NCBI GenBank assembly: GCA_024233865.1
Contig: JACKPA010000012.1
Coordinates: forward strand, 64,001-128,000
Length of the DNA stretch: 64,000 bases
Direction of reading: 5' to 3'
DNA from: Leptospiraceae bacterium
GTDB lineage: Bacteria > Spirochaetota > Leptospiria > Leptospirales > Leptospiraceae
The notes under the pieces are model-generated. The model was not told the origin of the DNA. It made no database searches and was given only the letters and a program-made list of their open reading frames with translations. Of the stretch, positions 904-24,237 are shown one piece after another. The position numbers and the translations under genes are program-made. Each line of letters starts with the position of its first letter. Within the stretch, counting starts at the first letter, position 1.

Positions 904-2028
904 TCAATACCACAATCGAAAACCAAAAGTATACTGCAAGTTCATTCCTCCTGATTTGTAGTTATGACTTCGGACATAATAGATATTAGAGTAAAAGTTT
1001 AAATAAGCACTATCCCCTTTTGTTTGTACTTTGACAGGCTCATAAGGGTGAAACAAAAACAGGTCTGCAATATTCCACAAATAAAAGCCAAGCAGAATGT
1101 TTGAAACTTGATTCAATCTTGTTGTAGCTTGCTCTACTTGAGTATATTTCTGCTCGCTTTCTGCAAAATTTACAATTTGCAAAGGATTACTTCTCGGTAT
1201 CAAAAACGTCGTATTAATGCTTTCGTTATATTCAGCCAGTTTTTGATTATAATCTTTGTTTGTTTGGTAGTAGGCAACCAACAGTGCTATTGCTATAGCC
1301 GGATATACTTTTAATTTCCATTTTTCTTTTGTACCACATTGGTTTGATCTATGGTATTGCCCCCAACCGGGAACTACAGCAGACCTCCAAAGTGGCTCAT
1401 ATAGGGAACATCTTGTAAATTTATCTCTTTCTTTTACAACTATAAATCGCTTTTTTTGATAGGTTTTATTGTGAGGATTTTCCAAAACCAAGTCATACTC
1501 GCCAATGGATGCGTCTTCCACACCTAAAGTAGCTTCCAGTTTATTTTTAGTAATAAATTGAACGTCTTTTACGGGAAGACTTCCTTTGGAAGACAGGATT
1601 TGAACCTTAGTATCTTGAACAAAATTCTCACCTTCCAAAACAATATTTTTGGTTCCAACTTCTTTCTCTATATAAACCGTATCCTCATTTGTTAATCTGG
1701 GGACAGCACTAATTGTAACTTCAAAAGAAACCCAGTCTGTCCACGTTTTGGCTACTCCAAATTTATTCAAAACTCCAATTCTATGCTCATACATCCCCGG
1801 TTCAACATCCTTACCTAATTCATAAGAATTGGTTGTCACTTTTTTATCCAATATTATTTTTTGAGATTCGTTCCTTACTTGAACCTTATAGCCAGAAGCA
1901 TTTTTAATTGCTTCCCACTTGAGTTCTTGCGAGCTCGAATCAAATAAAAAGAGAAATATAACCATGATTAATAAATATTTAAAAAATTGGTAATATAATT
2001 TTTTCATTTCGCATCTTACATTATTCAA
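904..2028 (-). CDS. Secreted/membrane hypothetical protein with FN3-like beta-sandwich
   Basis: N-terminal hydrophobic signal (LLIMVIFLFLF). Motif 'GYKVQVRN' is typical of FN3-like folds. Stop overlaps the start region of the upstream gene, suggesting an operon. Confidence 0.45.
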   Translation of the reverse strand: MNNVRCEMKKLYYQFFKYLLIMVIFLFLFDSSSQELKWEAIKNASGYKVQVRNESQKIILDKKVTTNSYELGKDVEPGMYEHRIGVLNKFGVAKTWTDWVSFEVTISAVPRLTNEDTVYIEKEVGTKNIVLEGENFVQDTKVQILSSKGSLPVKDVQFITKNKLEATLGVEDASIGEYDLVLENPHNKTYQKKRFIVVKERDKFTRCSLYEPLWRSAVVPGWGQYHRSNQCGTKEKWKLKVYPAIAIALLVAYYQTNKDYNQKLAEYNESINTTFLIPRSNPLQIVNFAESEQKYTQVEQATTRLNQVSNILLGFYLWNIADLFLFHPYEPVKVQTKGDSAYLNFYSNIYYVRSHNYKSGGMNLQYTFGFRLWY

Positions 2029-4117
2029 TATAAAGTTTTTTAGGTGTATAGACCTCCGGCACCTTAAATTGTTCTTCTGGCAGTATTAACCTAAAACTAC
2101 TTTTGATCGGTTTCGTTTTAACAATTTCTCCGTCTTGCTTTTTGTAAACCGAAGATAATGTCCATACGTATTCACCACTATGAAGTCCTTCATAGTTTTT
2201 CAATTCCATTTTTGGTTTTTGAGATTGGATTTTGGATAAAAGTTTATTCTGCTTTTCTTTATCATAAAGTTCAATGTCGTAATACAAAACTTGACCTTGT
2301 TCTTTCCAATCAAACACAAGCCTTTGTACTTTTTGCATATTTACTTCTTCACCTTTTGTTGGGTAAATAGGAGAAGGAGATTGTAAAATTTTTGAAATTT
2401 GAAATTTGTTTATAACGCTCTGAGACAACTTTATATTTTCGACAAATTGTGTAGTTCTCCAATGGTATATGCCTGGTTTATCTAGTAAAATATTTGTGGC
2501 AACATTTGCCGTTTTAACCGAATAAATAACGTTTTCAAAATTTTTATCTTGAGATACTTCAACTAGAAAGTAGCCTCTTGTGTTTGTTTTTTTCCACCTA
2601 AGTTGTACACCTTGGTTGGCTTCAGGGTAGAGGCTACTACCATCACTAGGATACTCCAATTGTAATTTTTCAGAAACCTTAATCTGAAAAGAAAAAGCTT
2701 TCGAAAAGACAGTCTCTATACCACCATTGGTTTTTCCCTTCACCCTCCAGTAATAACTTTTTCCTATATCCGTAGCAAATTTTTCTTTAATAAAGTTTTT
2801 ACTAAGTTTACTCTCAAAAATGATATTCTGAAACTGACTGTCTTTAGCAACCTGGAATGTATACTCCTTTAAAAAAGAAGAATCTTCCCAGTTGAAAAGA
2901 AGTTCAGCGTTTACAATCAATTTTTGATCCACTTCCTGGTTGTTGGAGGGATTGAGTAACGCAGGTGGCGGAACCTTCGTTTTTTTGACTATTTGAAAAT
3001 AAATGACTGGTGAACTTTCCGGTTCCATTCCACGAATGTTATAATTCCGGATAACTTTAGCATAGTATTTTCCCTCTTTTAGATTCCTAACTCCTAAAAA
3101 GGTCTCTAGTGTATTGGAATCATAAACCGTTTTCTCAAAACCACTCGTCTGAGAAAGCAAAAGCCTGTAAGACGAATCTAGCTCTCCCCTTTTCCAAGAA
3201 AAGATAATAAAGGGCGGTGAGTCTATATAATAAATTGTATCTTTATCCTTAGGAGAAGTCAATCGCAAAGGACTTGTTTCAACCACAAAAAACTTTCTAA
3301 CTTCACTGTATTCTTCTTTAACAGAGTCCTTTTTAAAAACCCGCCAATAATAACGACCTTTATCCAAATTGATTCCAATACTATTTTGGTTTGTAGCCTT
3401 TCTCACAATAGTACTTCTAAAACTCATGCTTTTGGAGATTTCTATAGTAACATTTCCTTTTGAATTCCACTGAAAAGGAATAACGCTTCCTTTTTTATCT
3501 GACTTGAAATACTGGTTTCTCTCCGGACTTTGCAAAAAAATGGATGACTTTTCATTTTGAGCTTGTACGCTTTCCTTTCCGGCTGCTTTCAATAAGGTAA
3601 CTTTTCCATCTTTTAGCTTTCCGGATTCATTGTTAATTTTCAAATTGGAATCATTAGAAAGCCCCTCCCCTTCTACGGTCATCATACCATACTCAAAATT
3701 CACGTTGATATCTTTATCATTTATATCAATTCGAATCATGCTATTCTCATCCAATTTAATTTCTGCTCCACCGTTCAAGGTTAAAATGGCTTCCGAGTAT
3801 TCCGCAGTACGAATAGTATCTTTGTTGCGTATCGGTGTTGATTCCTTGATTTCTTTCCACACAACGCTTTTATCCGATCTTCTCTGTACAAGCTTATACT
3901 TAGCCTTCAGTTCACCTATCACAGGATTATCACCACCGTCTATTGCCGAACTTAAATTCAGGCATAACAATTTGGAAAAAATAATAATAACAAGAACTAA
4001 AAATAAAATTACATATTTTGTGTTATTTAAGTATCGCATTTTATTTCGTTGTTCTTGTAAATACCCCATCCCAATTCTGAGGTGGAGGACTCTGTCTATA
4101 GGTTTGGCATCTAGCAA
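2021..4117 (-). CDS. Large secreted repeat protein (multiple FN3/Ig-like modules with recurring 'YYWRV' motif)
   Basis: Signal peptide after internal Met (MRYLNNTKYVILFLVLVIII), so the likely true start is ~4039, just after the cyclase stop. 'G(K/R)YYWRV' recurs three times. Confidence 0.45.
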   Translation of the reverse strand: MLDAKPIDRVLHLRIGMGYLQEQRNKMRYLNNTKYVILFLVLVIIIFSKLLCLNLSSAIDGGDNPVIGELKAKYKLVQRRSDKSVVWKEIKESTPIRNKDTIRTAEYSEAILTLNGGAEIKLDENSMIRIDINDKDINVNFEYGMMTVEGEGLSNDSNLKINNESGKLKDGKVTLLKAAGKESVQAQNEKSSIFLQSPERNQYFKSDKKGSVIPFQWNSKGNVTIEISKSMSFRSTIVRKATNQNSIGINLDKGRYYWRVFKKDSVKEEYSEVRKFFVVETSPLRLTSPKDKDTIYYIDSPPFIIFSWKRGELDSSYRLLLSQTSGFEKTVYDSNTLETFLGVRNLKEGKYYAKVIRNYNIRGMEPESSPVIYFQIVKKTKVPPPALLNPSNNQEVDQKLIVNAELLFNWEDSSFLKEYTFQVAKDSQFQNIIFESKLSKNFIKEKFATDIGKSYYWRVKGKTNGGIETVFSKAFSFQIKVSEKLQLEYPSDGSSLYPEANQGVQLRWKKTNTRGYFLVEVSQDKNFENVIYSVKTANVATNILLDKPGIYHWRTTQFVENIKLSQSVINKFQISKILQSPSPIYPTKGEEVNMQKVQRLVFDWKEQGQVLYYDIELYDKEKQNKLLSKIQSQKPKMELKNYEGLHSGEYVWTLSSVYKKQDGEIVKTKPIKSSFRLILPEEQFKVPEVYTPKKLYIE

Positions 4118-6137
4118 TCAGCATCACAGCTGCTTTGTCTACTTTTCCTTTTGTTTTTTGGGATTCCTCAAATTTATCAATGGCTCGATCCCAATTCCTG
4201 CTTAAGTAATAAACCATACCAGCATCGTACAAATCCGTTGCTCTTAAAACACTTTGTGTAACTTCATTTTTGGAACAAATCAGTTCATAAACTTTTACCG
4301 GTTCATTTTTTCCCTTTACACGCACCAAATCCAAAAGCCTGGTAAACATTTCGTTTGATATATTGTATTTTACACTTTCACTAATGAGTATATTTACACC
4401 ATAGTCTTTACCAGCCGCTTCCAAACGAGCCGCCAAATTTACCGTATCACCCATCATTGTATAAGAAGCAAGAGCATCCGTTCCCATAAAACCCACCTTT
4501 GCCAAACCGGTATTGAGTCCAATACGTATATCCATAGATTGAGCCTCTTTAGAATACATGTTTTTAGACTTCCAATATTCTCTCAACTCTTGCAATTTCC
4601 GAATCATTTCTAAAGAAGCGCGAGCAGCTTTTTTGCAATGCTCTTCTACATCCACAGGTGCATTAAAAATTCCTACAATTGCATCACCAATATATTTATC
4701 CAAAACTCCATCGTGTTTTTTGAGTATAATTGTCATAGCAGAGAGATATTCGTTTAGTAGTCCTGCAAGATCAACAGAAGACAACTGTTCGCTTATGGTA
4801 GAGAAACTCGCCACATCAGAAAAAAAAGCAGTTATTTCTTGCTCCTTGCCTCTTTTGAGAACTTGGAGGTCCTTCATAGCTTCTTCCACAACCGTTGGGT
4901 CGATCATACTGCCCAAAATATTTTTGACCTTTTCTCTTTCTTCTAAACCCAATCCCATAGAAACAAAGTGTTTTGTTAGTAGTCCGACTTCGTCTTTTGA
5001 TTGTGGTTTTATATCTACTCGAAAATTTCCTTTTGTGATTTCTAAAGTTGCGGCAAGCAATGCCAAAATAGGAAGTGAAATCGTCTTGGCAAATAGATAC
5101 ACCACTATCAAAGCCACACAAAGAGAGATCACCATGATAAAAATGTTCCTATTTTGGATCATGTAAACGGCTTCAAAAGCTTTGTCTTCTGGAATAGTTG
5201 CCAAAATACCACTATTGGCAAACCCCAATTTTCGATATGAAACCAAATATCTTTTTCCACTTTCCTTTTCGATATAATCAAACTGTCCGTTATTCACTTT
5301 ACTGGTAAACGCACTTTGAACCGTATTGGTGTCCATAAAATTTGAACCGCTTAAGGTGACGGAACTATCCGGATGAGCAATCACAATCCCCTTATGATTT
5401 ACCATAAAAACGGTAGTAATACCTCTTTCCTTAAAAACGCTAATAATTCGTTCTAATTTTACAATTACAACCAATATCGTATTAATCTCTGTTTCTTCGG
5501 AAGAAGGTAAACTAATGGCAAAAATCGGATGAGAAGCACTTTGACTCATGTTGTGTAAAATAGACATTCCATAAAAAGATTCCATAAAAGAAGAACGTTT
5601 GGCTTGAATCAAATCTTCAAAAGATTCCTTTGTCATATTAAACTCATCCATTTCCAATTGATTATAGATCGTTTTTATGGGAACTAACGTTTCATTCTCT
5701 TTTTTATACAGTCCCAAAAACAAGAAATCTCGATCATTGGCAAAAAAATGCTCCATCCACGAGTTTTTGTCCGCGGCTGAAACTTTGGAATCATTTAGCG
5801 TTTTAACTAGTTGTAAAGATTTGTCTAATATAGATTGAACATCCGACTTTATCTTCTCCCCTATGGTATTTACCAGATCAATACTATTTTCTCGAATTCT
5901 TAGATCAATTTCTCGTTTAAAAAAAAATGTTGCAAGAATAATTATGATAGAAAGCGTTACCCCAAAAATAGCAGAAATAACAACCATCAACTTGACCTGA
6001 ATAGACCACTTAGGGGCTTCTGCCTCAATTTTCGGATCGTTTAACTGAGTAAGTAAAAATTTTAGCTTGTAATCAAAAACTTTTTTAAAATTTCTGATCA
6101 TTATGGAATCTAATACCATAAATAGTATTCTAATCAT
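4041..6137 (-). CDS. Class III adenylate/guanylate cyclase with extracellular sensor and HAMP domain; TPR-like C-terminus
   Basis: Two TM segments flank a ~280-aa periplasmic region, followed by a HAMP-like segment. Cyclase core: IRIGLNTG...GDTVNLAARLE...VNILISESV. The C-terminal segment is TPR-like, ending MLIARCQTYRQ. Confidence 0.8.
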   Translation of the reverse strand: MIRILFMVLDSIMIRNFKKVFDYKLKFLLTQLNDPKIEAEAPKWSIQVKLMVVISAIFGVTLSIIIILATFFFKREIDLRIRENSIDLVNTIGEKIKSDVQSILDKSLQLVKTLNDSKVSAADKNSWMEHFFANDRDFLFLGLYKKENETLVPIKTIYNQLEMDEFNMTKESFEDLIQAKRSSFMESFYGMSILHNMSQSASHPIFAISLPSSEETEINTILVVIVKLERIISVFKERGITTVFMVNHKGIVIAHPDSSVTLSGSNFMDTNTVQSAFTSKVNNGQFDYIEKESGKRYLVSYRKLGFANSGILATIPEDKAFEAVYMIQNRNIFIMVISLCVALIVVYLFAKTISLPILALLAATLEITKGNFRVDIKPQSKDEVGLLTKHFVSMGLGLEEREKVKNILGSMIDPTVVEEAMKDLQVLKRGKEQEITAFFSDVASFSTISEQLSSVDLAGLLNEYLSAMTIILKKHDGVLDKYIGDAIVGIFNAPVDVEEHCKKAARASLEMIRKLQELREYWKSKNMYSKEAQSMDIRIGLNTGLAKVGFMGTDALASYTMMGDTVNLAARLEAAGKDYGVNILISESVKYNISNEMFTRLLDLVRVKGKNEPVKVYELICSKNEVTQSVLRATDLYDAGMVYYLSRNWDRAIDKFEESQKTKGKVDKAAVMLIARCQTYRQSPPPQNWDGVFTRTTK

Positions 6138-11849: not shown

Positions 11850-12881
11850 TTATATTAATCTTCTTGCCCTATACTTCCATTCCCAAAGCATTATCTCATC
11901 TTCTATATTAACGGCTTGCTCCTGATATTTTTCAAGCAAAGCATAAACCATAGAAGCTACCTCTTTAGAAAACCCTTTCTCAAGTTCTTTTTCAAATTGT
12001 TCTTCATCTTGATCTATTATCATGATCGCAAGACGAAAGACTTCATCTAAGCTTTTTAACTTTTCTAATTCAATGGAAGAGCTATTTTTTTGAGCTTCAT
12101 CTTTAATCATCACAGACAAAAAGGTTCTAATAAATATAACATCTTCTGATTTTAAATTAAAGTCAAATAATAGTTGCTTTACTTTATCTAACTCCATCTT
12201 CCTCATATGAATCCTAGCAAGGAAAACCGGATTTTCCGAATACATATTTAGATTAGAATTAGAAGAAACCAATTCAGCCGCCCGAGCTTTTTCAGTATCA
12301 ATAATAGGTCTGGCATTATAATCATCATCATTTCGGTGAGCTTTGGACTCTATAACGGTTGATATTTTCTTTTTTAATATCAATATATTCAAACTAGGAT
12401 ACCTTATTTTTAAAGTAACCATATCGGTTCTTTTCAAGTTTTCATCCGCTACAATATGATGAAATTCAAGTCCTCCTTGTTCAACAGCTCCAATGATTTC
12501 TTTTACATCCTCGTAATGATAAATAACTACAGGCAAAACGTCACTTTCCGACCCGGAATTCAAAAATATAGTTTTGATGTCTCTAGAACCACCGTGCTGA
12601 TATGGAATCACTAATTTTCCCGATTTAACATTCACAAAACTAAGTTCCCCCAATCTAAAATGGGATAAATTAAAATCGTCCCCCAAAAAAACTACTCTAG
12701 GAACTGTCACTATAATCGAATTATTTTTTGCTCCTTTAGGGATTTCAGGACCTTTAGGAGTGAACACAACATAAGTCATTTTATTAAGCCTGACTTTCAC
12801 CAAATAGCCTGCCGGTGTTTTCCTCTCTTCATAAGTAGTTTGCTGTTCTTCATCAATTTCCATATTAAAACTCCAAATCAA
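11850..12881 (-). CDS. Hypothetical protein, co-transcribed with the bEBP-like regulator
   Basis: Overlaps the upstream gene by 17 bp. No recognised motif. Confidence 0.4.
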   Translation of the reverse strand: MIWSFNMEIDEEQQTTYEERKTPAGYLVKVRLNKMTYVVFTPKGPEIPKGAKNNSIIVTVPRVVFLGDDFNLSHFRLGELSFVNVKSGKLVIPYQHGGSRDIKTIFLNSGSESDVLPVVIYHYEDVKEIIGAVEQGGLEFHHIVADENLKRTDMVTLKIRYPSLNILILKKKISTVIESKAHRNDDDYNARPIIDTEKARAAELVSSNSNLNMYSENPVFLARIHMRKMELDKVKQLLFDFNLKSEDVIFIRTFLSVMIKDEAQKNSSSIELEKLKSLDEVFRLAIMIIDQDEEQFEKELEKGFSKEVASMVYALLEKYQEQAVNIEDEIMLWEWKYRARRLI

Positions 12882-14199
12882 ATTGCTTCATCTTATACTG
12901 TAATGATCCTCTTGAGATTCCCAAAGCTTTGGACATTCTCATTTGATTGCCTGCAAAAAGTTTACTGGCAAGAATAATTTTTTGTCTTTCCATATTCTCC
13001 ACACACTTTCTTAAGTTCAAATCCTCATTTGTAAGAGTTATAGGTTGTGGCTCGCAAGTAGAAGCAAGATAGTTTTCATCCAAATCAATTTCACTTCCTT
13101 TAGCTCTTACTATTGAATTTTCCAGCAGTCCCCTAAGCTCTTTTAAATTTTCGGAATAATCATGCTTAGCCAACAAATCCAAAGTCCTATTAGAAAGTTT
13201 CAGACCGGAACGACCATGCAAAAGTTTTAATTCATAAAACATCTTCCGTATTACTTCCAAGAGAACTATTTTATCCAATAAATTTAACTTTGGTAAAAAA
13301 ACAGAATTCTCATTCAAAATATCCCAAAATGGTTGATAGGTATCCACTCTACTTTCATTTCTATCAATAAAAAATAAACTACAAGCTTTTTTTTCTTTCT
13401 GTAAAAATTGATAAAACAAGTTTTGCTGTCCCACGTTAAAGGAATCCACACCGTCAAAAACAATTACTCCATGACGAATCATCTTAGTCCAATTTTCCAA
13501 AGATTTTTCCAACTTTCCAAGCTGTTCCGGTATTGAATTGATAAAAATAAAATCACCGCTATATTCAAATTTTCTGTAAATATATTTAGCCAAAGATTTT
13601 TTGCCGCTGCCATTTCCGCCACCTATCAATAAAACAGGTGGAAAAAAATCGCTATTGATTTTCTCAAAACCACTAGAAAAAGAAACCAATAATTCAATTA
13701 TTCCAAAATCGCTTTTGTCAGAAAACTCAATTGCCTTTTCTCCATCATCATTTTTGTATTTAAGAGAATATATCTGACCGACCCTATTGGCAAACATCCC
13801 TATGAATAAAGACATAATGTCTTTGCATACACCCGTAAACTCAAACAAAACAAACCCTACTACATTGCCTCTTTTAGCAATAATTCTTGAAACCAAAGCA
13901 AAATCCGAATAATTAAAATAAAGCTTAAACTCCTTTGCATAAAATATCAAAGGAAGAATTGAAGCTTCCACTTTCTCCAAATGCCCCCCCCCCCTCGATA
14001 AAAACCCATAATAAAAACCATCTTGCCCATAACCGGAAATGGCACATTCAATAAAATAATCTTTACCAACTGGTGCAAGAGCTATAGTCCCACAATTTGC
14101 TCCTACTGCATTCACAATTTGCTCAAAAACTAAAGACAATTCATTCTCTAAGCTTTCAGGAGTAAGGTTCTCATTGAACAATAAGTTATACAATATCAA
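12865..14199 (-). CDS. Degenerate sigma-54-activator-like (AAA+ central domain) regulator with C-terminal Fis-type HTH
   Basis: Walker-A-like GGGNGSGKKSLA. Central-domain remnants IVFDGVDSF..QQNLFYQFLQ, VFLPKLN.LDKIVLL and ENLKELRGLLENSI. C-terminal HTH MRMSKALGISRGSLQYKMKQF. No GAFTGA seen. The ORF contains a G11 tract. Confidence 0.55.
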   Translation of the reverse strand: MILYNLLFNENLTPESLENELSLVFEQIVNAVGANCGTIALAPVGKDYFIECAISGYGQDGFYYGFLSRGGGHLEKVEASILPLIFYAKEFKLYFNYSDFALVSRIIAKRGNVVGFVLFEFTGVCKDIMSLFIGMFANRVGQIYSLKYKNDDGEKAIEFSDKSDFGIIELLVSFSSGFEKINSDFFPPVLLIGGGNGSGKKSLAKYIYRKFEYSGDFIFINSIPEQLGKLEKSLENWTKMIRHGVIVFDGVDSFNVGQQNLFYQFLQKEKKACSLFFIDRNESRVDTYQPFWDILNENSVFLPKLNLLDKIVLLEVIRKMFYELKLLHGRSGLKLSNRTLDLLAKHDYSENLKELRGLLENSIVRAKGSEIDLDENYLASTCEPQPITLTNEDLNLRKCVENMERQKIILASKLFAGNQMRMSKALGISRGSLQYKMKQFDLEF

Positions 14200-14392: not shown

Positions 14393-15148
14393 ATGATTAT
14401 TGTATCGATAGCCAACCAAAAAGGTGGAGAGGGCAAAACAACCACTTCAATAAATCTAGCTGATGGAATAGCTAGAAGAAATAAGAGAACTTTGTTAATT
14501 GATATGGATCCACAAGCAAATTCGACCGGTATATTTTTAAATTCCGATCAAATAGAAAAATCAATGTACCATGTTTTTAATTCTTTTGCACCTGTAAAAG
14601 AAATTATCCACAAAACCAAAGTCGAAAATCTTGATATCGCTCCTTCTGAGCTAAAATTGGCCGAAATGGAAACAAGGAGTTCTAATACGGTAGAAGCTCC
14701 TTATATACTGAAAGACGCTTTGAGCAACCTAAATAATGAGTATGACATCTGCATAATCGATTGTCCTCCTAGTTTATCCATCTTTACCATCAATGCTTTG
14801 GTTGCTTCCAATTATATAATCATTCCTTTACAGGCAGAAAAGTTTTCGATTGATGGCATAATAGGACTACAAGGCACTGTTGATAATATAAAAAAGAGAA
14901 TCAATCCTCAACTACAGATTCTAGGAGCACTTATTACCCAATTAAAACCCCAGACATTATTAACAAAAACAATCGTACCAGTAATTGTAAAGTTTTTTAG
15001 GTTGTTTGATACAACAATTTCAGACGGTGTATCTGTTGGAGAAAGCAATATGGCAAGAAGTTCTGTTTACACCTATAATAAAAAAAGCAAACAAGCGCAG
15101 GAATATGAAAACTTTACAGAGGAAGTTTTAAATGAGCTCGAAAAGTAA
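14393..15148 (+). CDS. parA: ParA/Soj partition ATPase
   Basis: Deviant Walker A NQKGGEGKTTTS; 251 aa. Overlaps parB by 17 bp. Confidence 0.9.
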   Translation: MIIVSIANQKGGEGKTTTSINLADGIARRNKRTLLIDMDPQANSTGIFLNSDQIEKSMYHVFNSFAPVKEIIHKTKVENLDIAPSELKLAEMETRSSNTVEAPYILKDALSNLNNEYDICIIDCPPSLSIFTINALVASNYIIIPLQAEKFSIDGIIGLQGTVDNIKKRINPQLQILGALITQLKPQTLLTKTIVPVIVKFFRLFDTTISDGVSVGESNMARSSVYTYNKKSKQAQEYENFTEEVLNELEK

Positions 15149-15980
15149 AAGATTAGGGACTCTTGTTGATATATTTCAAGCAGAAACATTAGAAGGCTCT
15201 ATAAAAAAAATTAAAATAGACTCAATACAACCCTCTGATACTCAACCTAGAATAGATAGAAGGAAAGCAGTCGATGAATTAGCAGAAAGTCTAAAACAAA
15301 ATGGACTTCTGCAACCAATTCTAATAACAAAAAGAGATGGTGAAAGTAATTACAGAATTATAGCAGGAGAGAGAAGATATCATGCTGCCAAATCATTAGG
15401 GTGGACAGAATTAGAATGTAAAATATTAAATAAAACAGAAAAAGAAACCTACAAACTAGCCATTATAGAGAACTTACAAAGAGAAAACCTTACTCCCTAT
15501 GAAGAAACAGAAGCCATTGCATTTTTAAAAAGCAACTACCATTATACAGATCTGGAATTAGCAGAAATCTTCGGAAAAAGCCGAAGTTATATGACTGAAA
15601 TATTAAGCATCTCCACACTAAATAAAGATGAGATGCAAATTTGCAAAGAAAACGGTATAGGTACAAAAAACCTTCTTGTTCAGGCTGCACAAGCCTCTAA
15701 AAAAGGAGATTTCACTGAATTCATAGAGCAAATAAAAAATAAAGAAATCAAAACAGTTAAAGACGCAAAAAAATTTAATAAAAAGATAACCATTGAAAGC
15801 GATAACACTTTAAACGATGCTATCCCCCTCAATACCCCCAATGAAAACCACCAAGAAACCAAAAGTAATTATACAATAACAAAAGATTCCAATCAAATAA
15901 TTATACAAGTCAGCAATCATGAGCTTATCAATAAAATCTATGAGTTTATAAGCCAAGAATTAGCAAATCTTCAGCTATAA
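15132..15980 (+). CDS. parB: ParB/Spo0J partition protein
   Basis: ParB box IIAGERRYHAAKSLGW. The N-terminal ParB/Srx fold is followed by a divergent C-terminus. Confidence 0.85.
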   Translation: MSSKSKRLGTLVDIFQAETLEGSIKKIKIDSIQPSDTQPRIDRRKAVDELAESLKQNGLLQPILITKRDGESNYRIIAGERRYHAAKSLGWTELECKILNKTEKETYKLAIIENLQRENLTPYEETEAIAFLKSNYHYTDLELAEIFGKSRSYMTEILSISTLNKDEMQICKENGIGTKNLLVQAAQASKKGDFTEFIEQIKNKEIKTVKDAKKFNKKITIESDNTLNDAIPLNTPNENHQETKSNYTITKDSNQIIIQVSNHELINKIYEFISQELANLQL

Positions 15981-16115
15981 ATATACTATGATTAGATTCA
16001 CTTGATTTTAAAGGATTTTCTGCATTTCATATCTACAAACCAATCCGCGTTGTGTATAGTATCGCTCATTAGTTTATTCCAAATCACCTTAATCAAAATC
16101 GAAGGAATATTCATT

Positions 16116-16192
16116 CCTGTTGATTAAATTTAATCAACAGGAAATCGATCTTAAAGCACGTGTAATATGATTAAATTTAATCATATTACACG
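16116..16192. promoter_or_regulatory. Two perfect palindromes (26 bp and 34 bp) sharing core TGATTAAATTTAATCA; candidate centromere (parS-like) or iteron/operator
   Basis: Palindrome 1 is CCTGTTGATTAAATTTAATCAACAGG at 16116-16141. Palindrome 2 is CGTGTAATATGATTAAATTTAATCATATTACACG at 16159-16192. Both lie in the 660-bp gap between parB and the Rep-like gene. Confidence 0.5.
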
Positions 16193-16500
16193 CTACATTA
16201 TTTGCGAAAATTATTCGCTGTGATCCATACATCTTCTGTGTTATTAGAGAAAAAAATTCGCATATTCTTGACAGAAACTACCATGGCGAAATAATGAGAC
16301 ATAAGTTATGATATGTCTAGTAAACTTTTACTAAGGGGATTTATGAATAATGAGGCTTTTGTTTCCTTTTTATCAAAAAGATGATTCTTTCACTCGAAAC
16401 ATGATTATAGAAAATTTATATACAGAATCAAGATTATGAACAGCAAAACAATTTTTTATTTCAAATGGAACAAAAAAAATTCGCATAAAACAAAAAAAGT

Positions 16501-16522
16501 CTCCTGGGTGAAAACCCAGGAG
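16501..16522 (-). terminator. Intrinsic-terminator-like hairpin, minus-strand orientation
   Basis: CTCCTGGGT-GAAA-ACCCAGGAG: 9-bp GC-rich stem with a GNRA loop. On the minus strand it is followed by AC plus a T7 run. No annotated minus-strand gene lies upstream. Confidence 0.4.
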
Positions 16523-16550
16523 TCGGAATCTCCCGAGGGAATGTTGTTGG

Positions 16551-17609
16551 ATGAGACATAAATTAACTTATAATCGAAGGGTGTCAATAATTTTTGATTA
16601 TATTTTGCTTAATATTAGTTTTTTTTTATCAAAAGGAGAAGGTATGAGCGAGAATTTTCAGTATTTTAAGTTCATGACTGATATTATAGACTCTGGGACT
16701 TGGGCAAAGCTGTCTTCCGCTGCCAAAAGCTTGTATCCTGTGTTGCTAAAATTTAGTGACCAGACTTTCAAGTATGTATGGCCTAGCACGGAAACCTTGA
16801 TGAGGCTGACCGGCTTCAAAACTAAAAAGTCTGTCATCTTGGCAAAAAAAGAACTTATGAACGTAGGACTTATCCGCACAGTCTCAGGTTCTGGGAGAAC
16901 TAATTCCAGATACTATTTTTCTTTTAATTACGAGGGTTCCAAAATTACACCTCTGGGGGATAAAGAAATATACCGATCAGGTGTATTGAAATCAACCGCA
17001 GAGGCATGTCCGGCTACATCTTTAGGGGATAGCTCAGCAAACCCAAACAATATTAATATAACTATAACCAATAATCCAGGTCAAAAAGCAAAAAATTCGA
17101 GTAATAAAACCAAAAATACTGACAACTATTTTAAAAACAATTTTTCTGAAGATGTATTATCTTATGAATCTTTGCTAGATATTTATGGAATTGAAATATT
17201 AAACTACGCTTATTCCATAGCTCAAAAGAGAAATCTGGAAAATGATATTTCTCACATAAAAGATATCTGCAAAGCTCGTGTTAAAGAAATTAGCTCTACA
17301 CTTGTGGGAGCAAAGCAAACACCAAACAATAACCTCGAAATATCGAGTATATGGTCTAATTTTATTAGATGGACAGAGATTCACTTGACTTCAACATCGA
17401 TTGAAATGATAAAAAATGCAAATATTCTCATTGAAGGACGAACAATTATTGTTCAAGGGGAGTTGAATAAATATTTGCAGCAAGTTATTGTGAAATATTT
17501 TTCTGAAAAAGTTACTCCTAAAATATTTATTTCTTTTAGTAATAATGAAAAGATAAATGGTAAAGCTTTAAATGGTATCGAATTTTCAAAAAACGGACAT
17601 TTTGATTGA
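16551..17609 (+). CDS. Winged-HTH replication-initiator-like / regulatory protein
   Basis: Probable true start at 16644 (ATG preceded by AAAGGAGAAGG). The N-terminal wHTH resembles plasmid/phage Rep N-domains (..SAAKSLYPVLLKFSD..WPSTETLMRLTGFKTKKSVILAKKELMNVGLIRT), followed by a low-complexity linker. Confidence 0.45.
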   Translation: MRHKLTYNRRVSIIFDYILLNISFFLSKGEGMSENFQYFKFMTDIIDSGTWAKLSSAAKSLYPVLLKFSDQTFKYVWPSTETLMRLTGFKTKKSVILAKKELMNVGLIRTVSGSGRTNSRYYFSFNYEGSKITPLGDKEIYRSGVLKSTAEACPATSLGDSSANPNNINITITNNPGQKAKNSSNKTKNTDNYFKNNFSEDVLSYESLLDIYGIEILNYAYSIAQKRNLENDISHIKDICKARVKEISSTLVGAKQTPNNNLEISSIWSNFIRWTEIHLTSTSIEMIKNANILIEGRTIIVQGELNKYLQQVIVKYFSEKVTPKIFISFSNNEKINGKALNGIEFSKNGHFD

Positions 17610-17760: not shown

Positions 17761-20277
17761 ATGATAAAGAAGAATATTAGAATTAGCCATCCAGCAGATA
17801 TATTAATCAAACAAGTTGAGACAAAAGGAAAATATGATTTAGAAAATGGTAGTCTCAATCATTTTAGTTACGAATCTGCTTCTATCGAGATTTCAGCTAT
17901 TGCATTACAACTACAAGAAGATTCGGCTTTTAATTTAGTTCAATTTGAATTTATTGAAGGCGAAAAAGAGTTTTTACCGGAAATTTTTAGATTTGAGATT
18001 TCAAGAGACGGATTAGTTTGGGAACCTATTATTCAAGAGTATAAATACTCTAGTTTAAACAAAAATTTCTGCAAATGGAACTTTTCGTTGGTTCAAACAA
18101 ATTTTTTTAAATTGGTAATCAAACCAACAAGGAGAACCCAGAAGGGAGATTATAAAGTTTCATTCAAAAACTTCAAATTAAAAATATCCGGTATTGAGAA
18201 AATTATAGCCAGTTCTGAAAATGATAGGTATTGGGTAAAAGAAAACCTTGTTGATGGCAGAAAAGATTATGGTTGGTCTTCTAAAGAAAAGAAACAATCT
18301 AGTGAAGAGTTTGTTTTATTTGATTTGGGTTCTATTAATAAAATTGAGGAATTTCGCCTTTTAACTAAAAACGAATCCGAAACGAATTTTCCTGAAAATT
18401 TCGTTGTTTATTATAGCGAAGATGATTTGTCTTGGTTTCAATTGCTAGATGAACCTCACTTTCTCTCTGAGCCTGCAACTTGGTACTCATGGAAGTTTTT
18501 ACCTATAAATATGAGGTTTATGAAAATTGTATGTTTATGCGAAAATTTAAATTCCCAAGGTTTGTATGTAAGCCAGTTTGTTGAAGTTGAGATATATGCT
18601 TCTACTGATGAAATTAGTTTTTCTGGGAAAATTAATAGTTTGGATCCCCCCCCCTACTCTTCTATAATTAGGTCTGGTTTGGTTCGCCTTGCCGGTAATG
18701 GTGAATCAAGAGAAGGAGTTGTCGTCCAGGGTAATGATAGAAGACTAATGGATGCTACAATTGAGTTTAAAGGAATTGTAGAATTAGCCAGCGATGGCGA
18801 AGATAGAGAAGGAGTTGTCGTCCAGGGTAATGATAGAAGGTTAAAAATTGCTACTGAAAATAATTATGGTTTGGCAAAATTAGCTAAAAATAGAGAATGT
18901 AGAACGGGGATTGTTGTTCAAAGTGATGATGATAGACTAAGAACCGCAACTACGGAATATTCTGGGATTGTGGAATTGGCTGAGGACGGGGAAACTAGAC
19001 CTGGAACTGTTGTTCAAGGTAACGATAGCCGTTTGAAAAAAGCAACTACAAAAGATTACGGGTTAACTGTAATGGCTGAATTAGGTTCTGATTTACCTGG
19101 AAGAGTTATTACCGCTGATGATCCAAGAATTAAAAAAGCTACCACCACAAAAGAAGGAATTTTAAGATTTGCTCACAATGGCGAAAGTGAAGGATTATGT
19201 GCTGTTCAAGGCAGTGATAAAAGGTTAAAAGAAGCAACTACCGAAAGTTTTGGAATTGTGAAACTAGCTCACTCCGGAGAAGGAAATGAAGGAAAGGTCA
19301 TTCAAGGCAATGATAAAAGGTTAAAGGAAGCCACTGAAACTGAACCCGGCATTGTATCATTTGCCAAACATGATTCTAATGTAGCCAACAAAGCAGTACA
19401 AGCAAACGATCCAAGACTATATGATTCTAGAGAAGCGAAACCGCATACGCATGATTATGCTCCAAAAGTTCATGACTATAATTCTCATACCGGACTGATT
19501 CGCCTAAAAGGAGAAGTTCAGTCTCAGTTTAAACATATCGTTGTTCCACCTCAGAATCATGGAGTGATATACGGGAAAAATGAAGCAACATCGGGAGCTG
19601 GAATTGTTGGAGTAGGTGAAGATGAAGGGGTTTTAGGTTATTCTAATGATTATGGAGTTGTTGGCTATTCAGGAAGTTCAAAAGAAGATTCGGCTGGTAT
19701 ATGTGGGTTTGCTAAAAAAGGATTCGGAGGGGAATTTACTTCCCAGTCTTCTTATGCTTTATGCGCTAATGGTAAGGGAGTAAAGAAAAAAGATATATCC
19801 GGTTCCGGAAAAGCTGTATTGGCATTGGGAAACTCTGAATTTCATGGAATGATTAAAATTGAAGATGACAATGCTTCTCATTGTATTGCTGCATGTTTTA
19901 CTTTGCTTCAGAATGAAATTATCTCGGAAGGAGACATTATCGTTATTGGCGAAAAAGATGGTAAAATAGCAAAATCAAAAACAGCGTATTCTACTAGAGT
20001 TATTGGAGTTGCAGTTTCTTCAATGTCGATACAGCTAGGACGGGATAAAACAAAATCGGAAGATGTGTTAGTTGCTCTTTATGGCATGGTAAAAATTAAT
20101 GTAGATGCTTCCGATGGTGCTATTCATTTTGGTGATTTACTTGTTTCTGGTCTAACCAGTGGTCATGCAGTAAAAGCTGATACCAATAAACTAAAGCCAG
20201 GAATGATTGTTGCAAAGGCTTTAGGTGAATGTAAGAAAGATAGATTACTTATTCCAGCTATTCTAACTATTCAATAA
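17761..20277 (+). CDS. Phage-tail-fibre-like repeat protein with two N-terminal discoidin (F5/8 type C)-like domains
   Basis: ~9 tandem ~28-aa repeats (GIVELAxDGExRxGxVVQGNDxRLKxATT) resemble the tail-fibre 'GxVxLAT-xE-xxGTD' repeat. The protein also has a Gly-rich segment and a C-terminal beta-rich domain. A C9 homopolymer in-frame at 18646-18654 encodes PPP. Confidence 0.6.
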   Translation: MIKKNIRISHPADILIKQVETKGKYDLENGSLNHFSYESASIEISAIALQLQEDSAFNLVQFEFIEGEKEFLPEIFRFEISRDGLVWEPIIQEYKYSSLNKNFCKWNFSLVQTNFFKLVIKPTRRTQKGDYKVSFKNFKLKISGIEKIIASSENDRYWVKENLVDGRKDYGWSSKEKKQSSEEFVLFDLGSINKIEEFRLLTKNESETNFPENFVVYYSEDDLSWFQLLDEPHFLSEPATWYSWKFLPINMRFMKIVCLCENLNSQGLYVSQFVEVEIYASTDEISFSGKINSLDPPPYSSIIRSGLVRLAGNGESREGVVVQGNDRRLMDATIEFKGIVELASDGEDREGVVVQGNDRRLKIATENNYGLAKLAKNRECRTGIVVQSDDDRLRTATTEYSGIVELAEDGETRPGTVVQGNDSRLKKATTKDYGLTVMAELGSDLPGRVITADDPRIKKATTTKEGILRFAHNGESEGLCAVQGSDKRLKEATTESFGIVKLAHSGEGNEGKVIQGNDKRLKEATETEPGIVSFAKHDSNVANKAVQANDPRLYDSREAKPHTHDYAPKVHDYNSHTGLIRLKGEVQSQFKHIVVPPQNHGVIYGKNEATSGAGIVGVGEDEGVLGYSNDYGVVGYSGSSKEDSAGICGFAKKGFGGEFTSQSSYALCANGKGVKKKDISGSGKAVLALGNSEFHGMIKIEDDNASHCIAACFTLLQNEIISEGDIIVIGEKDGKIAKSKTAYSTRVIGVAVSSMSIQLGRDKTKSEDVLVALYGMVKINVDASDGAIHFGDLLVSGLTSGHAVKADTNKLKPGMIVAKALGECKKDRLLIPAILTIQ
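18700..19330 (+). repeat. Coding tandem repeats (~84 bp x ~9) of the tail-fibre-like protein
   Basis: Reiterated ..GTTGTTCAAGG(T/C)AATGAT(A/G)GA.G..TAAAA.. blocks encode VVQGNDRRLK units. Confidence 0.6.
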
Positions 20278-20290
20278 GGGGAGTATTTTT

Positions 20291-21160
20291 TTGAGTAAAA
20301 TTATTGATATTTATTTAAAATCCAATAAACCGGTTTTTTCTTTTGAATTTTTTCCTCCTAAAACAGTAGAAGGTGAAGAAAAATTATTTTTAACAATAGA
20401 GAATTTAAGCCAATTAAATCCTTCTTTTGTGTCCGTTACTTATGGTGCCGGAGGGACAACTCGAACTAAAACGGTTGAGATTTCACGAAAAATTCAAGAT
20501 GATTTTAAAATTGAAACTATGTGCCATTTTACTTGTGTAGGTGTGGATAGTAATCAAATCAAAGAAACTTTAGATTCAATCCATAATTTTGGTATTAAGA
20601 ATCTTATGGCTTTGAGAGGTGATCCTCCTAAAGGTGAAGGGAAATTTACTAAAACTAAGGGAGGGTTTGAAAATGCTACGGAGCTGATTTCATTTATTAA
20701 AAGTGAAGGCTATTCTTTTTGCTTGGGTGGAGGCTGTTATCCGGAAAAGCACCCTGATGCTCCAACCCTTGAAATAGATATTCAAAACCTTAAACATAAG
20801 GTAGATGCGGGAGCTGATTTTTTGATTACTCAATTGTTTTTTAAAAATAGTGTATTTTTTGATTTCTTAGAAAATACAAAAAAAACCGGGATCAACAAAC
20901 CTATTATTCCTGGAATTATGCCTATCACAAACTTTAACCAAATAGCAAGGTTTAAAGAAATGGCAGGTTGTGAAATACCAGAATCATTAGTTACTGAATT
21001 GGAAGCCTTAAAAGACGATCCAATCGAATTTCAAAAAAAGAGTTTAGCATATACTACCGGACAGTGTAAAGAATTGTTACAAAATGGAGTTTTCGGTATT
21101 CATTTCTATACGTTAAATCAATCTCGAGCTACTTTTGAAATTATGAAAAAACTAATTTGA
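20291..21160 (+). CDS. metF: 5,10-methylenetetrahydrofolate reductase
   Basis: SVTYGAGGTTR and MALRGDPP motifs; 289 aa. Confidence 0.85.
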   Translation: MSKIIDIYLKSNKPVFSFEFFPPKTVEGEEKLFLTIENLSQLNPSFVSVTYGAGGTTRTKTVEISRKIQDDFKIETMCHFTCVGVDSNQIKETLDSIHNFGIKNLMALRGDPPKGEGKFTKTKGGFENATELISFIKSEGYSFCLGGGCYPEKHPDAPTLEIDIQNLKHKVDAGADFLITQLFFKNSVFFDFLENTKKTGINKPIIPGIMPITNFNQIARFKEMAGCEIPESLVTELEALKDDPIEFQKKSLAYTTGQCKELLQNGVFGIHFYTLNQSRATFEIMKKLI

Positions 21161-21790: not shown

Positions 21791-24237
21791 ATAAGTCAAG
21801 TTTATTGGAAACTTTTATCCAAGAAAAATTCTCAAGGGAATTGCTTTCGCACAAGAAAATTGCTTCTTCTGAAGGAAGTTTTTCCCCCCTACCCTATTCT
21901 TTGAACCCTATTTTACAAAAAACTCTAATAGAATCCGGCTACAGTCAACTGTACTCTCATCAATTGGCTGCTTTTGATTCTATCTCTCAAAAAAAAAATG
22001 TGGTATTAGTAACCAATACGGCAAGTGGAAAGACTCTATCTTTTTTATTGCCTTTGCTTAATGATTATTCCAATGCAAAAACACCATTTACGTCTATTCT
22101 TATGTACCCTACAAAAGCGTTATCAAGAGATCAAGAAAATACCCTAAGAAAATTGGTTGAAAGTGTATGCGAACAAAACAAAATTGGTACTTACGACGGT
22201 GATACTCCCCAAGAAGAAAGGACTAATATATTAAAAAAAGCCGATTTTTTGATTACCAATCCGGATATGTTACATTCCGGAATTTTACCAAACCACAATC
22301 GAAAATGGAAAGGTTTTTTATCTAGATTACGATATGTCGTGGTGGATGAAGTTCATTCATATCGTGGAGCTTTTGGTTCTCATGTTGCCAATGTTTTTAG
22401 ACGATTGTTACGTTTATGTGAATTGCATGGCTCAAAACCGGTTTTGATTGCTTGCTCAGCTACTATCGGAAATCCGAAGGAACATGTAGAGATGTTATTC
22501 CAGAGAGAGTTTTATCTTATAGACAAAGATGGTTCTCCGAAAGCTGGAAGAAATTTATACTTTATGAATCCTCCTATGGTTAAAAATTCAATAGATACAT
22601 TACATCGGAAGGGAGCTAATTCCATAGCCATACCTATCTTAAGATTTGCAACGGAAAAGGGAATAAGGACAATTTGTTTCTGTCGTTCCAGACAAGAAGT
22701 CGAAAGGCTTTATAGAGCGACAATTGACGGACACTGGTATATCGCTGAAAAGATTAAACCGTATCGTGGAGGACTTTTACCTAATGAACGGAGGCAGCTA
22801 GAGAAGGATTTATTTTCTGGTAAAATCAATACTATTATAGCAACAAATGCTCTCGAACTTGGGATTGATATAGGAAATATGGTACTTTGTGTTTTATCCG
22901 GTTATCCAGGAACTGTATCTAGCTTTTGGCAGAGGGTTGGTAGAACTGGACGCAGTGGCGACAAATCCATTGCGGTTTATATAGCTAAAGATTCGCCCAT
23001 TGATCAGTACATAGTGAATCACCCTGAATTTGTTACTCATGCTCCTATAGAGCAAGCATGGTTGAATGCTGATAATCCTTATATTCTATTGCAACATATT
23101 CCTTGTGCTGCCTATGAATATCCGATCGAGGTAAATGATAAAACTTTTTCAAAAGAAGTCCATCGAATTGCCATTGATGTTTTAAACAAAAATAAGACTT
23201 TATCCCAGTACAACAACTATTATAGATACGCTTTAGAAGACTTTCCTTCCAAAGGAGTTAATTTGAGGGGTATGACGGACTATAATATTCAAATTTCTTG
23301 TGAAGGAGAGATTATTGGTGAAATTGACCCTATTGGGGCGATGGATACACTCTATAAAGATGCAATCTATCAGCATTTGGGAACTCGGTATATGTCTTTG
23401 GATTTGGATATGGAAAAGAAGTTATGCCAAGTGAGTAAGGTTTCCATAGACTATTATACGGAATCTGTTTGGGAATCTATGATAAACATGTTGGATTGCT
23501 TGGAATCCAAAGAAATCAATGGAAGTTTTGTTAATCTTGGATATGTACAAGTCAATCGACAGCCCAAATTGTACAAAAAAATAAAAGAAAGAACTTATGA
23601 AAATATTGGTTACGGACCAATTACTCTCAAACCGTTTTTGTATGAAACTATGGGTTTTTGTATATTTCCACCTAAAACTTGGCTGGAAGCTATGGAAAAA
23701 ACGGACATTCGATTTATTGAATCCGGTTTGTTCGGGCTAAGCTATATTCTAAAAAAAACAGCACCTATTGTGTGTATGGGAGATATAGGAGATATTCAAA
23801 CGGATGTTTCTCTAGAGGATTTTACAAAGGTAGGTTGGAAAAGTTCTTTATTTTTGTTTGATTCTCATGAGGGAGGAGTTGGTTATTCAGAGAAGGTTTA
23901 TGAAAAGCTATCGGAAACTTTAGTATTATGTGAGCAAATTATTATAGAGTGTAGTTGCGGTGTCGGATGTCCGTCTTGTGTTCCACCTCTTCTGCCAGGA
24001 ATTGAGAACAAAGAGTTGGAAAGCTTTTTAGTGGAAACAAATGTTGCAGTAGAATCAACAAGAAGTCTGCTCATTATGTTGATTTATGGTAAATTGTATA
24101 CCCCAAAAGTCAAAGTTTTGGAAACAAAGCTGAAGTCTGCTCATACTACAGAAAAAGACTTGGAAAGAGAAAAGATGGAAAAACAACTGAATCGAGCGGC
24201 AGACCTACTTTCCAAAAAAAGGGAAAAAATCCATTGA
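21787..24237 (+). CDS. MrfA/YprA-like DExH-box helicase with C-terminal DUF1998 (Zn-binding 4-Cys) domain
   Basis: Motif I TASGKT, motif II DEVH, motif III SAT, motif VI QRVGRTGR. C-terminal CSCGVGCPSC cluster. 816 aa. Confidence 0.8.
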   Translation: MNKSSLLETFIQEKFSRELLSHKKIASSEGSFSPLPYSLNPILQKTLIESGYSQLYSHQLAAFDSISQKKNVVLVTNTASGKTLSFLLPLLNDYSNAKTPFTSILMYPTKALSRDQENTLRKLVESVCEQNKIGTYDGDTPQEERTNILKKADFLITNPDMLHSGILPNHNRKWKGFLSRLRYVVVDEVHSYRGAFGSHVANVFRRLLRLCELHGSKPVLIACSATIGNPKEHVEMLFQREFYLIDKDGSPKAGRNLYFMNPPMVKNSIDTLHRKGANSIAIPILRFATEKGIRTICFCRSRQEVERLYRATIDGHWYIAEKIKPYRGGLLPNERRQLEKDLFSGKINTIIATNALELGIDIGNMVLCVLSGYPGTVSSFWQRVGRTGRSGDKSIAVYIAKDSPIDQYIVNHPEFVTHAPIEQAWLNADNPYILLQHIPCAAYEYPIEVNDKTFSKEVHRIAIDVLNKNKTLSQYNNYYRYALEDFPSKGVNLRGMTDYNIQISCEGEIIGEIDPIGAMDTLYKDAIYQHLGTRYMSLDLDMEKKLCQVSKVSIDYYTESVWESMINMLDCLESKEINGSFVNLGYVQVNRQPKLYKKIKERTYENIGYGPITLKPFLYETMGFCIFPPKTWLEAMEKTDIRFIESGLFGLSYILKKTAPIVCMGDIGDIQTDVSLEDFTKVGWKSSLFLFDSHEGGVGYSEKVYEKLSETLVLCEQIIIECSCGVGCPSCVPPLLPGIENKELESFLVETNVAVESTRSLLIMLIYGKLYTPKVKVLETKLKSAHTTEKDLEREKMEKQLNRAADLLSKKREKIH

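Follow-up and report, generated by a model that had tools for sequence, protein, structure and literature searches.

The shafts of T4-type phage tail fibres, represented by gp34 and gp12 (PDB IDs 9f4a, 9x3r, 5iv5, 5lye and 9f4b; PHROG 972 and 910), are trimeric. In the pre-neck appendage, or tail spike, of phage phi29 (gp12; PDB IDs 3gqh and 3suc) the C-terminus serves as an intramolecular chaperone (PMC4690869), and proteins of the beta-tulip fold are typically trimers (PMC7602432). Tandem discoidin or CBM32 domains are known from neuropilin (b1b2), factor V/VIII (C1C2) and C. perfringens ZmpB (CBM32-1/2). Modules resembling all of these are combined in one protein encoded on a 64,000-nucleotide stretch of a Leptospiraceae bacterium (assembly GCA_024233865.1, contig JACKPA010000012.1, positions 64,001 to 128,000; hereafter the window, in whose numbering all positions are given). 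The gene in question occupies 17761-20277 of the forward (+) strand and encodes a lectin-headed fibre protein. We propose that the protein forms a homotrimeric fibre which stands alone and is composed of phage-tail-fibre modules, and that its gene has long been fixed as a cellular core gene of the Leptospirales, and we consider this reading moderately probable.

The described orthologue of this gene is LIC20001/LB001 (LB_001), the first gene of L. interrogans chromosome II, whose product is deposited as a 'discoidin domain-containing protein' (WP_001083715.1). Previously it has been just a 'conserved hypothetical' protein listed as a candidate surface antigen of pathogenic Leptospira. The protein is 91 kDa in size, and mass spectrometry identified it among the proteins of a ClpB-trap pull-down (PMC5979558). 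No functional study of the orthologue was found in the literature on Leptospira discoidin proteins or the chromosome II origin. The two proteins align over 100% of the length with 52% identity and share the length of 838 amino acids, eight repeats of 32 residues, a cluster of histidines and the gene order parB-HTH-fibre-metF (HTH, helix-turn-helix). They differ in the hinge, where LIC20001/LB001 has PLPY in place of PPPY and its gene has no C tract.

Domain architecture of the 838-residue protein

The open reading frame (ORF) at 17761-20277 (+) starts with ATG, is real and yields a product of 838 amino acids and 92.5 kDa. The product is a genuine member of the discoidin-domain proteins, and the two N-terminal discoidin domains proposed in an earlier reading made from the sequence alone (the sequence-only reading) were recovered by Pfam for domain 2 and by predicted fold and structural comparison for the pair. 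Domain 2 (residues 146-283; 18196-18609, +) matches the Pfam family F5_F8_type_C (PF00754) over residues 148-260 with 57.1 bits, as compared to a gathering cutoff of 28.2, and an E-value of 2.6e-15. It also matches profiles of neuropilin b1/b2. Domain 1 (residues 1-145; 17761-18195, +) gives weak matches to the CBM32 profiles 3f2z and 2jd9, and in long homologues both discoidin domains are detected by Pfam, domain 1 being matched in homologue P0100. AlphaFold2 (AF2) modelling produced two confident beta-sandwiches with a predicted local distance difference test score (pLDDT) of ~90. Foldseek aligned the pair to tandem discoidin/CBM32 structures, namely neuropilin b1b2, factor Va C1C2 and ZmpB CBM32-1/2, with E-values of ~3e-11 over 275-390 columns. 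Fold and tandem arrangement are thus alike in these systems, but here the pair is joined to a fibre and not to an enzyme or receptor.

Hydropathy also entered into the assignment of domain 1. The N-terminus of the protein belongs to the beta-sandwich of this domain, and no signal peptide, hydrophobic N-terminus, lipobox or transmembrane segment could be identified (maximum Kyte-Doolittle score over 19 residues, 1.16). Since neither a signal peptide nor a lipobox is present, the designation of the protein as an adhesin is unproven. No NCBIfam family matches the protein and PADLOC returned no defence-system match. Heads and shaft are connected by a low-confidence hinge (residues 284-302; 18610-18666, +). 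The pLDDT falls below 50 at residues 285-307, and the linker, in which the three consecutive prolines are located, is poorly conserved in the alignment of homologues.

The shaft (residues 303-558; 18667-19434, +) was delineated by repeat analysis and fibre profiles and consists of eight tandem units of exactly 32 residues each, with D-x-R-L anchors at residues 326, 358 and so on up to 550. These anchors replace the estimate of ~9 repeats of 28 residues given in the sequence-only reading. The repeat consensus is xxxGIVxLAxxGExxxGxVVQGNDxRLKxATT, and within the unit Gly4, Asp24 and Arg26 do not vary. At the DNA level, similarity among the repeats persists only for repeats 1-2. Among 120 homologues, 80 have eight repeats and a further 35 have 16, and a few have 13-15. 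In the closest clade, a single member (P0028, 774 amino acids) has six repeats as compared to eight and is exactly 64 residues shorter; its only source is a short Logan contig, in which the assembly may have collapsed.

In profile searches, the repeats match PHROG 910, 'tail collar fiber', with an E-value of 6.3e-10 and PHROG 972, the 'tail fiber protein proximal subunit' of long tail fibres, with 2.7e-5. A profile of the 305-residue repeat region compared to the PDB finds T4-type gp34 at 1.7e-7 and the gp12 short tail fibres at 6e-4 to 8e-3. A profile of a single 32-residue repeat gave nothing useful against the PDB because it is too short. The PHROG and PDB matches therefore bear out the earlier impression that the repeats are fibre-like, as the profile searches do find fibre repeats. 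The motif shared with gp34 and gp12 is AT-x3-G-[ILV]-x-x-[LF]-A-x3-E-x3-G. In the second half of the unit the phage proteins have aVTPxxL, whereas VVQGNDxRL is present here. In further contrast to the phage proteins, the protein described here keeps a strict period of 32 residues in eight (or 16) copies, lacks a virion attachment domain and any phage context, and carries its lectin heads at the N-terminus.

The shaft is followed by a cluster of histidines (H562-x-H564-x-Y566 ... H571 ... H576-x-G578; 19435-19494, +) which is invariant in 121 sequences. HxH motifs of T4 gp12 and gp37 are metal sites, and by analogy the cluster probably binds a metal on the three-fold axis of a trimer. The remainder of the protein forms a widespread C-terminal module, composed of a Gly-rich segment with many invariant glycines (residues 603-700; 19567-19860, +), recognized by conservation and modelling, and a C-terminal beta-tulip domain (residues 701-838; 19861-20274, +), which is the presumed nucleus of trimerisation. 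When modelled alone, the module reached a pLDDT of 84 overall and of 90-98 in the beta domain. The Gly-rich segment and beta-rich C-terminal domain described from the sequence are thus confirmed by structure prediction and fold matches.

The fold of the C-terminal domain is that of the phi29 gp12 tail-spike auto-chaperone; capsid decoration proteins of the beta-tulip fold, which are trimeric, come next among the matches. A viral structure library contains many phage tail proteins whose C-termini match the domain, with E-values down to 3e-11. The likeness to phi29 gp12 is one of fold: the Pfam family Peptidase_G2 (PF11962) does not match the protein and the phi29 PDB profile reaches an E-value of only 0.78. 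Where the released phi29 fragment begins, the aligned position is occupied by His707 here; among 121 homologues it is Asp in 54, Glu in 18 and another residue in the rest. With His707 here and Asp in only 54 of the 121, autocleavage is doubtful.

A full HMMER scan with the C-terminal module returned 6559 cluster representatives at an E-value of at most 1e-3, and was needed since a word-indexed protein search with the C-terminal 238 residues gave 3 matches. The family is unannotated and has no Pfam model. In proteins of 200-1700 amino acids the module is always C-terminal, and the source names of ten distant members all read 'hypothetical'. Two short proteins of 285-334 amino acids, encoded on Bacillus plasmid pl626 (L088, 6887-7891) and on a Paraburkholderia megaplasmid (L089, 6830-7687), consist of Gly-rich repeats and the C-terminal beta-tulip module only. 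They are 51% identical to each other and have integrase genes nearby, which suggests horizontal spread of the unannotated module across phyla. No conserved cassette is present beside these two genes, and the genes downstream of them are mutually unrelated.

Orthologues and genomic context

Homologues of ~838 amino acids, which are 50-63% identical over the full length, are present in pathogenic, intermediate and saprophytic Leptospira as well as in many metagenome-assembled genomes of Leptospiraceae, and the fibre gene is a single-copy, fixed-length core gene of the Leptospirales. In ~70 of 80 genomic loci the same order is seen: orf11850 and a sigma54/Fis-type regulator gene on one strand and, on the other, parA, parB, an HTH 'rep' gene and the fibre gene, usually followed by metF. 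L. interrogans chromosome II opens with this order, which also occurs on pTURPA.01, a 25-kb replicon of Turneriella parva. What had been a conserved hypothetical protein thus emerges as an order-wide, fixed-length, lectin-headed fibre made of phage tail-fibre modules at a constant origin-proximal position.

In the window, parA (14393-15148) and parB (15132-15980) constitute the module of the second-replicon origin (14393-15980, +). The HTH_36 'rep-like' gene (16551-17609, +) lies immediately upstream of the fibre gene and metF (20291-21160, +) starts 14 nucleotides after its stop codon. The synteny of all these genes with the fibre gene is conserved. At ~14-16 kb of the window the sign of the GC skew is inverted, which locates the origin region of the second replicon here. 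The rep/par module described earlier as plasmid-like does adjoin the gene, but it is not an incidental insert; it belongs to the origin of the Leptospirales second replicon, where it is conserved. The 14-nucleotide gap between the fibre gene and metF has no terminator-like site, and for this reason the two genes are probably co-transcribed.

The genes upstream of parA form a divergent pair with this module: orf11850 (no Pfam hit) and the Fis/sigma54-type regulator gene occupy 11850-14199 (-), facing 14393-17609 (+). The synteny of the pair with parA-parB-HTH-fibre is seen in loci L001-L077, L081 and L082, across the Leptospirales, and suggests a conserved origin-proximal 'core' of a chromid. 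Between parB and the rep gene are two perfect palindromes, at 16114-16143 (30 nucleotides) and 16159-16192 (34 nucleotides). Both contain the 16-nucleotide core TGATTAAATTTAATCA, the two copies being 47 nucleotides apart, and may serve the second replicon as parS/operator or iteron-like sites.

In other Spirochaetota the protein takes a form of ~1110 amino acids with exactly 16 repeats (the 35 of 120 homologues mentioned above; occasionally 13-15), and its gene is located in a housekeeping context without par/rep or phage genes. Examples of these 16-repeat loci are L085 (8001-11354) and L086/L087 (8001-11342). Directly downstream of the 16-repeat gene is a conserved ORF of ~210 amino acids on the opposite strand, which has no Pfam hit and whose copies in two genomes share 52% identity; further downstream are genes for thioredoxin and D-Tyr-tRNA deacylase. 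Two homologues of other lineages, P0276 (386 amino acids) and P0277 (192 amino acids), are frameshifted after repeat 3 and inside domain 2, respectively, at sites unrelated to the hinge, and are either sporadic pseudogenes or assembly errors.

The C-run in the hinge

The hinge of the protein described here is encoded in part by an uninterrupted run of nine cytosines (C9; 18646-18654, +), which is read in frame as CCC CCC CCC for Pro296-298 (..LDPPPYS..). A check of the sequence agrees with the sequence-only reading on the position of the tract, on its frame and on its location upstream of the repeats. A slip of one nucleotide in either direction truncates the protein as had been stated there, since tract lengths of 7, 8, 10 or 11 all lead to a stop at codon 301-303. 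Runs of this kind are rare. In dinucleotide-preserving shuffles, 0.17 C or G runs of at least nine nucleotides are expected per window, as compared to two observed, and CCC is the rarest proline codon in the ORFs of the window (15.7%). The only other such run is C11 at 13984-13994; the two lie less than 5 kb apart and flank the origin region.

The C11 on the + strand corresponds to G11 on the coding (-) strand of the sigma54/Fis-type regulator gene (ORF 12865-14199, -; AAA+ and HTH_8 domains). It is in frame and encodes R-G-G-G-H, and a slip of one nucleotide in either direction would truncate the regulator at codon 83-91. Relatives have RGKGN or RGLGN at this position, so that the G11 is also lineage-specific. 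At the end of the window, a gene for an Eco57I/TaqI-type restriction-modification methylase (62287-63816, -) contains shorter runs, C7 and G7, at 63732 and 63797.

The PPP sequence and the C9 are present only in this genome; the corresponding residues are T-P-P-Y in the closest clade and P-L-P-Y in Leptospira proper. In 17 sequences of the clade, including a metagenome locus (L083) with C8, the site reads ACN CCC CCC TAC; six of them have C8, seven have C6 and in four the run is interrupted. The tract is in frame and the ORF intact in each of the 17, and none represents an OFF allele. The C9 itself derives from a Thr to Pro substitution (ACC to CCC), and as all relatives are in frame the differences in tract length between species are substitutions and not indels. 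The closest full-length match is 63% identical, and a fragment of 401 residues from the C-terminal part, which is 88% identical, stops short of the tract. A search with the N-terminal 310 residues for closer and possibly OFF-phase relatives found nothing above 55% identity, its truncated matches being P0276 and P0277, which are frameshifted elsewhere, and a metagenome scan for tracts of at least six C at the hinge site found two loci, both intact. In 1.37 Mb of homologous loci there are no G/C runs of 9-11, and five of the 11 runs of eight fall at the hinge site. The C9 is slippage-prone in principle, and the sequences compared so far give no sign of on/off switching.

The clade conserves more of this site than its amino acids. 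The codon analysis covered 15 clade sequences with pairwise identities of 55-97% (median 66%), and conservation at synonymous sites was found for the 12 nucleotides CCCCCC TAC TCT (18649-18660, +). At codons 297-300, CCC is used in 12 of 15, CCC in 15 of 15, TAC in 15 of 15 and TCT in 13 of 15. The other seven invariant proline columns are scrambled, with CCC in 20 of 105 cases, and the preferred codon of the other invariant tyrosine columns is TAT. In a naive binomial test over 271 invariant columns, Tyr299 ranked first, Pro298 second, Ser300 fifth and Pro297 seventh. The rest of the top seven are serines encoded by AGT, a codon that is trapped in a two-step family.

Synonymous sites flanking codons 297-300 vary freely and RNAalifold detected no conserved structure or hairpin around the tract (-0.32 kcal/mol). 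From the conservation of CCC CCC TAC TCT between free flanks in the closest clade, we conclude that the C-run is, as judged by this alignment, constrained there as a nucleic acid. Elsewhere the motif CCCCCCTACTC does not recur as a dispersed repeat. A copy with one mismatch, CCCCCCTACCC, at 21884-21894 (+) in a DEAD-box/MrfA-like helicase gene encodes ..SPLPYS.. in another register and is probably a coincidence. The distances to the stop codons of the alternative frames after the tract, which range from 3 to 40 codons, are not conserved.

The proposed fibre and its alternatives

The arrangement of modules would be explained by the following model. The C-terminal Gly-rich and beta-tulip module would fold first and set the register of three chains, and a metal ion would be held on the three-fold axis by the invariant HxH...H...H cluster. 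The gp34/gp12-like repeats, eight units of 32 residues, would zip into a rigid shaft of fixed length, and the flexible hinge (residues 284-302) would display three discoidin/CBM32 pairs for multivalent binding of glycans. The C9 in the hinge is a lineage-specific extension, by one codon, of the CCC-CCC pair that the clade conserves as nucleotides. A core spirochaete protein thereby acquires a concrete structural hypothesis, with a putative trimer, metal site and glycan ligand.

Several observations weigh against this model. Pfam-A offers no fibre-repeat family for the shaft at an E-value of 1 or below, and the pLDDT of the shaft in the AF2 monomer prediction is just 55-79. The lack of a Sec or lipoprotein signal fits poorly with an extracellular lectin and leaves the surface, the periplasm and the cell interior as candidate sites of action, and the orthologue LIC20001/LB001 has been assigned to the outer membrane or surface by bioinformatic prediction only (PMC2387172, PMC5348505). 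The binding domains are N-terminal, so that the orientation of the heads is reversed as compared to phage fibres. Finally, the synonymous conservation of the C-run implies a function at the nucleic-acid level which lies outside the explanation of the protein as a fibre.

As shaft repeats and C-terminal module alike are of phage-tail type, the gene could be read as a prophage or tailocin remnant, that is, the tail-fibre gene of a mobile element which came by chance to lie beside a plasmid-type rep/par. This reading is largely refuted and we give it almost no credence. No phage structural genes are present in the window, as had been noted before, or in the related loci; neither tblastn against 50,697 phage records nor a scan of IMG/VR turned up anything related to the fibre protein. 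The GC content of the gene resembles that of its neighbours, and its position and length are identical across the whole order. The gene is better seen as an example of a phage fibre architecture kept as a stand-alone cellular gene. Its same-orientation adjacency to parA-parB-rep across the Leptospirales, which extends to the minimal 25-kb replicon of T. parva, may instead be taken to mean that the protein is an accessory of replicon maintenance and works with ParA, ParB and Rep in the replication or segregation of the second chromosome. We regard this as very improbable, because the protein has no DNA-binding or NTPase domain, its lectin and fibre modules are unrelated to partition and the 16-repeat orthologues of other Spirochaetota stand in their housekeeping contexts without par/rep. 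Moreover, origin-proximal synteny can last without any functional linkage.

Two further readings concern the C-run and are both unlikely in our estimation. The sequence-only reading had regarded the gene as a candidate phase-variable fibre or adhesin, in which slipped-strand mispairing at the C9 would toggle between the full-length protein and a truncated two-lectin product of ~33 kDa or none, with the G11 of the regulator maybe as a second switch. The immediate stop after a slip, the rarity of such runs in shuffles and in homologous loci, the occurrence of two of them within 5 kb of the window, the concentration of C8/G8 runs at the hinge site and the conservation of the C-run at synonymous sites would all suit a switch. 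So would the likeness to contingency loci, such as the poly-G tracts of Treponema pallidum tpr genes (PMC7864442) and the poly-G/C tracts of Neisseria, Campylobacter and Haemophilus, which also have a coding G/C run of at least nine nucleotides where a slip by one truncates the product. The clade argues otherwise: the 17 sequences differ in tract length by substitution and none is out of frame, and the seven members with C6 and the four with an interrupted run are too short to switch and keep the codons anyway. Relatives show no length polymorphism, in contrast to contingency loci. A fixed-length core gene in single copy is also unlike the variable or accessory genes for surface structures or modification, and the extra conservation of TAC TCT is needless for simple slippage. 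The transcript of LIC20001 served as an unchanged-expression control in quantitative reverse-transcription PCR of in vitro and host-adapted cells (PMC3953431), and we found no report of homopolymer phase variation in Leptospira in the literature. Taken with the uniqueness of the PPP/C9 and the lack of a signal peptide, these observations leave the claim of a phase-variable adhesin unsupported.

The nucleic-acid constraint could also reflect an RNA-level site, CCC-CCC-UAC-UCU, that acts through +1 frameshifting on CCC-C or transcriptional slippage, to give a minor isoform of the free lectin, or through a Pro-Pro pause that separates the folding of head and shaft. CCC-C motifs are prone to +1 frameshifting. 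In favour of such a site, four consecutive minority codons are conserved almost totally between scrambled synonymous sites, exactly at the hinge of head and shaft. Against it, no conserved RNA structure is located nearby, the alternative-frame stops vary in distance, and the constraint is limited to one clade, as Leptospira proper has PLPY with mixed codons. A more far-reaching combination, which we hold to be equally doubtful, is that the hinge C-run is a selected recoding or slippage element which, by +1 frameshifting or by transcriptional or DNA slippage, would give both the trimeric fibre and a free tandem-lectin head. Having grown to C9 in this genome, the run would, together with the G11, then represent the first homopolymer contingency loci described for Leptospiraceae, flanking the origin of chromosome II. 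The synonymous conservation of the C-run and the presence of two long G/C tracts open homopolymer switching and recoding in Leptospiraceae to testing.

At some distance from the fibre gene, the window contains two adjacent ORFs on the minus strand, 2021-4117 (-) and 4041-6137 (-), which are both 698 amino acids in length and overlap by 77 nucleotides. HAMP and adenylate/guanylate cyclase domains are detected in the product of 4041-6137, and that of 2021-4117 has no Pfam hit. The two ORFs may be diverged tandem paralogues.

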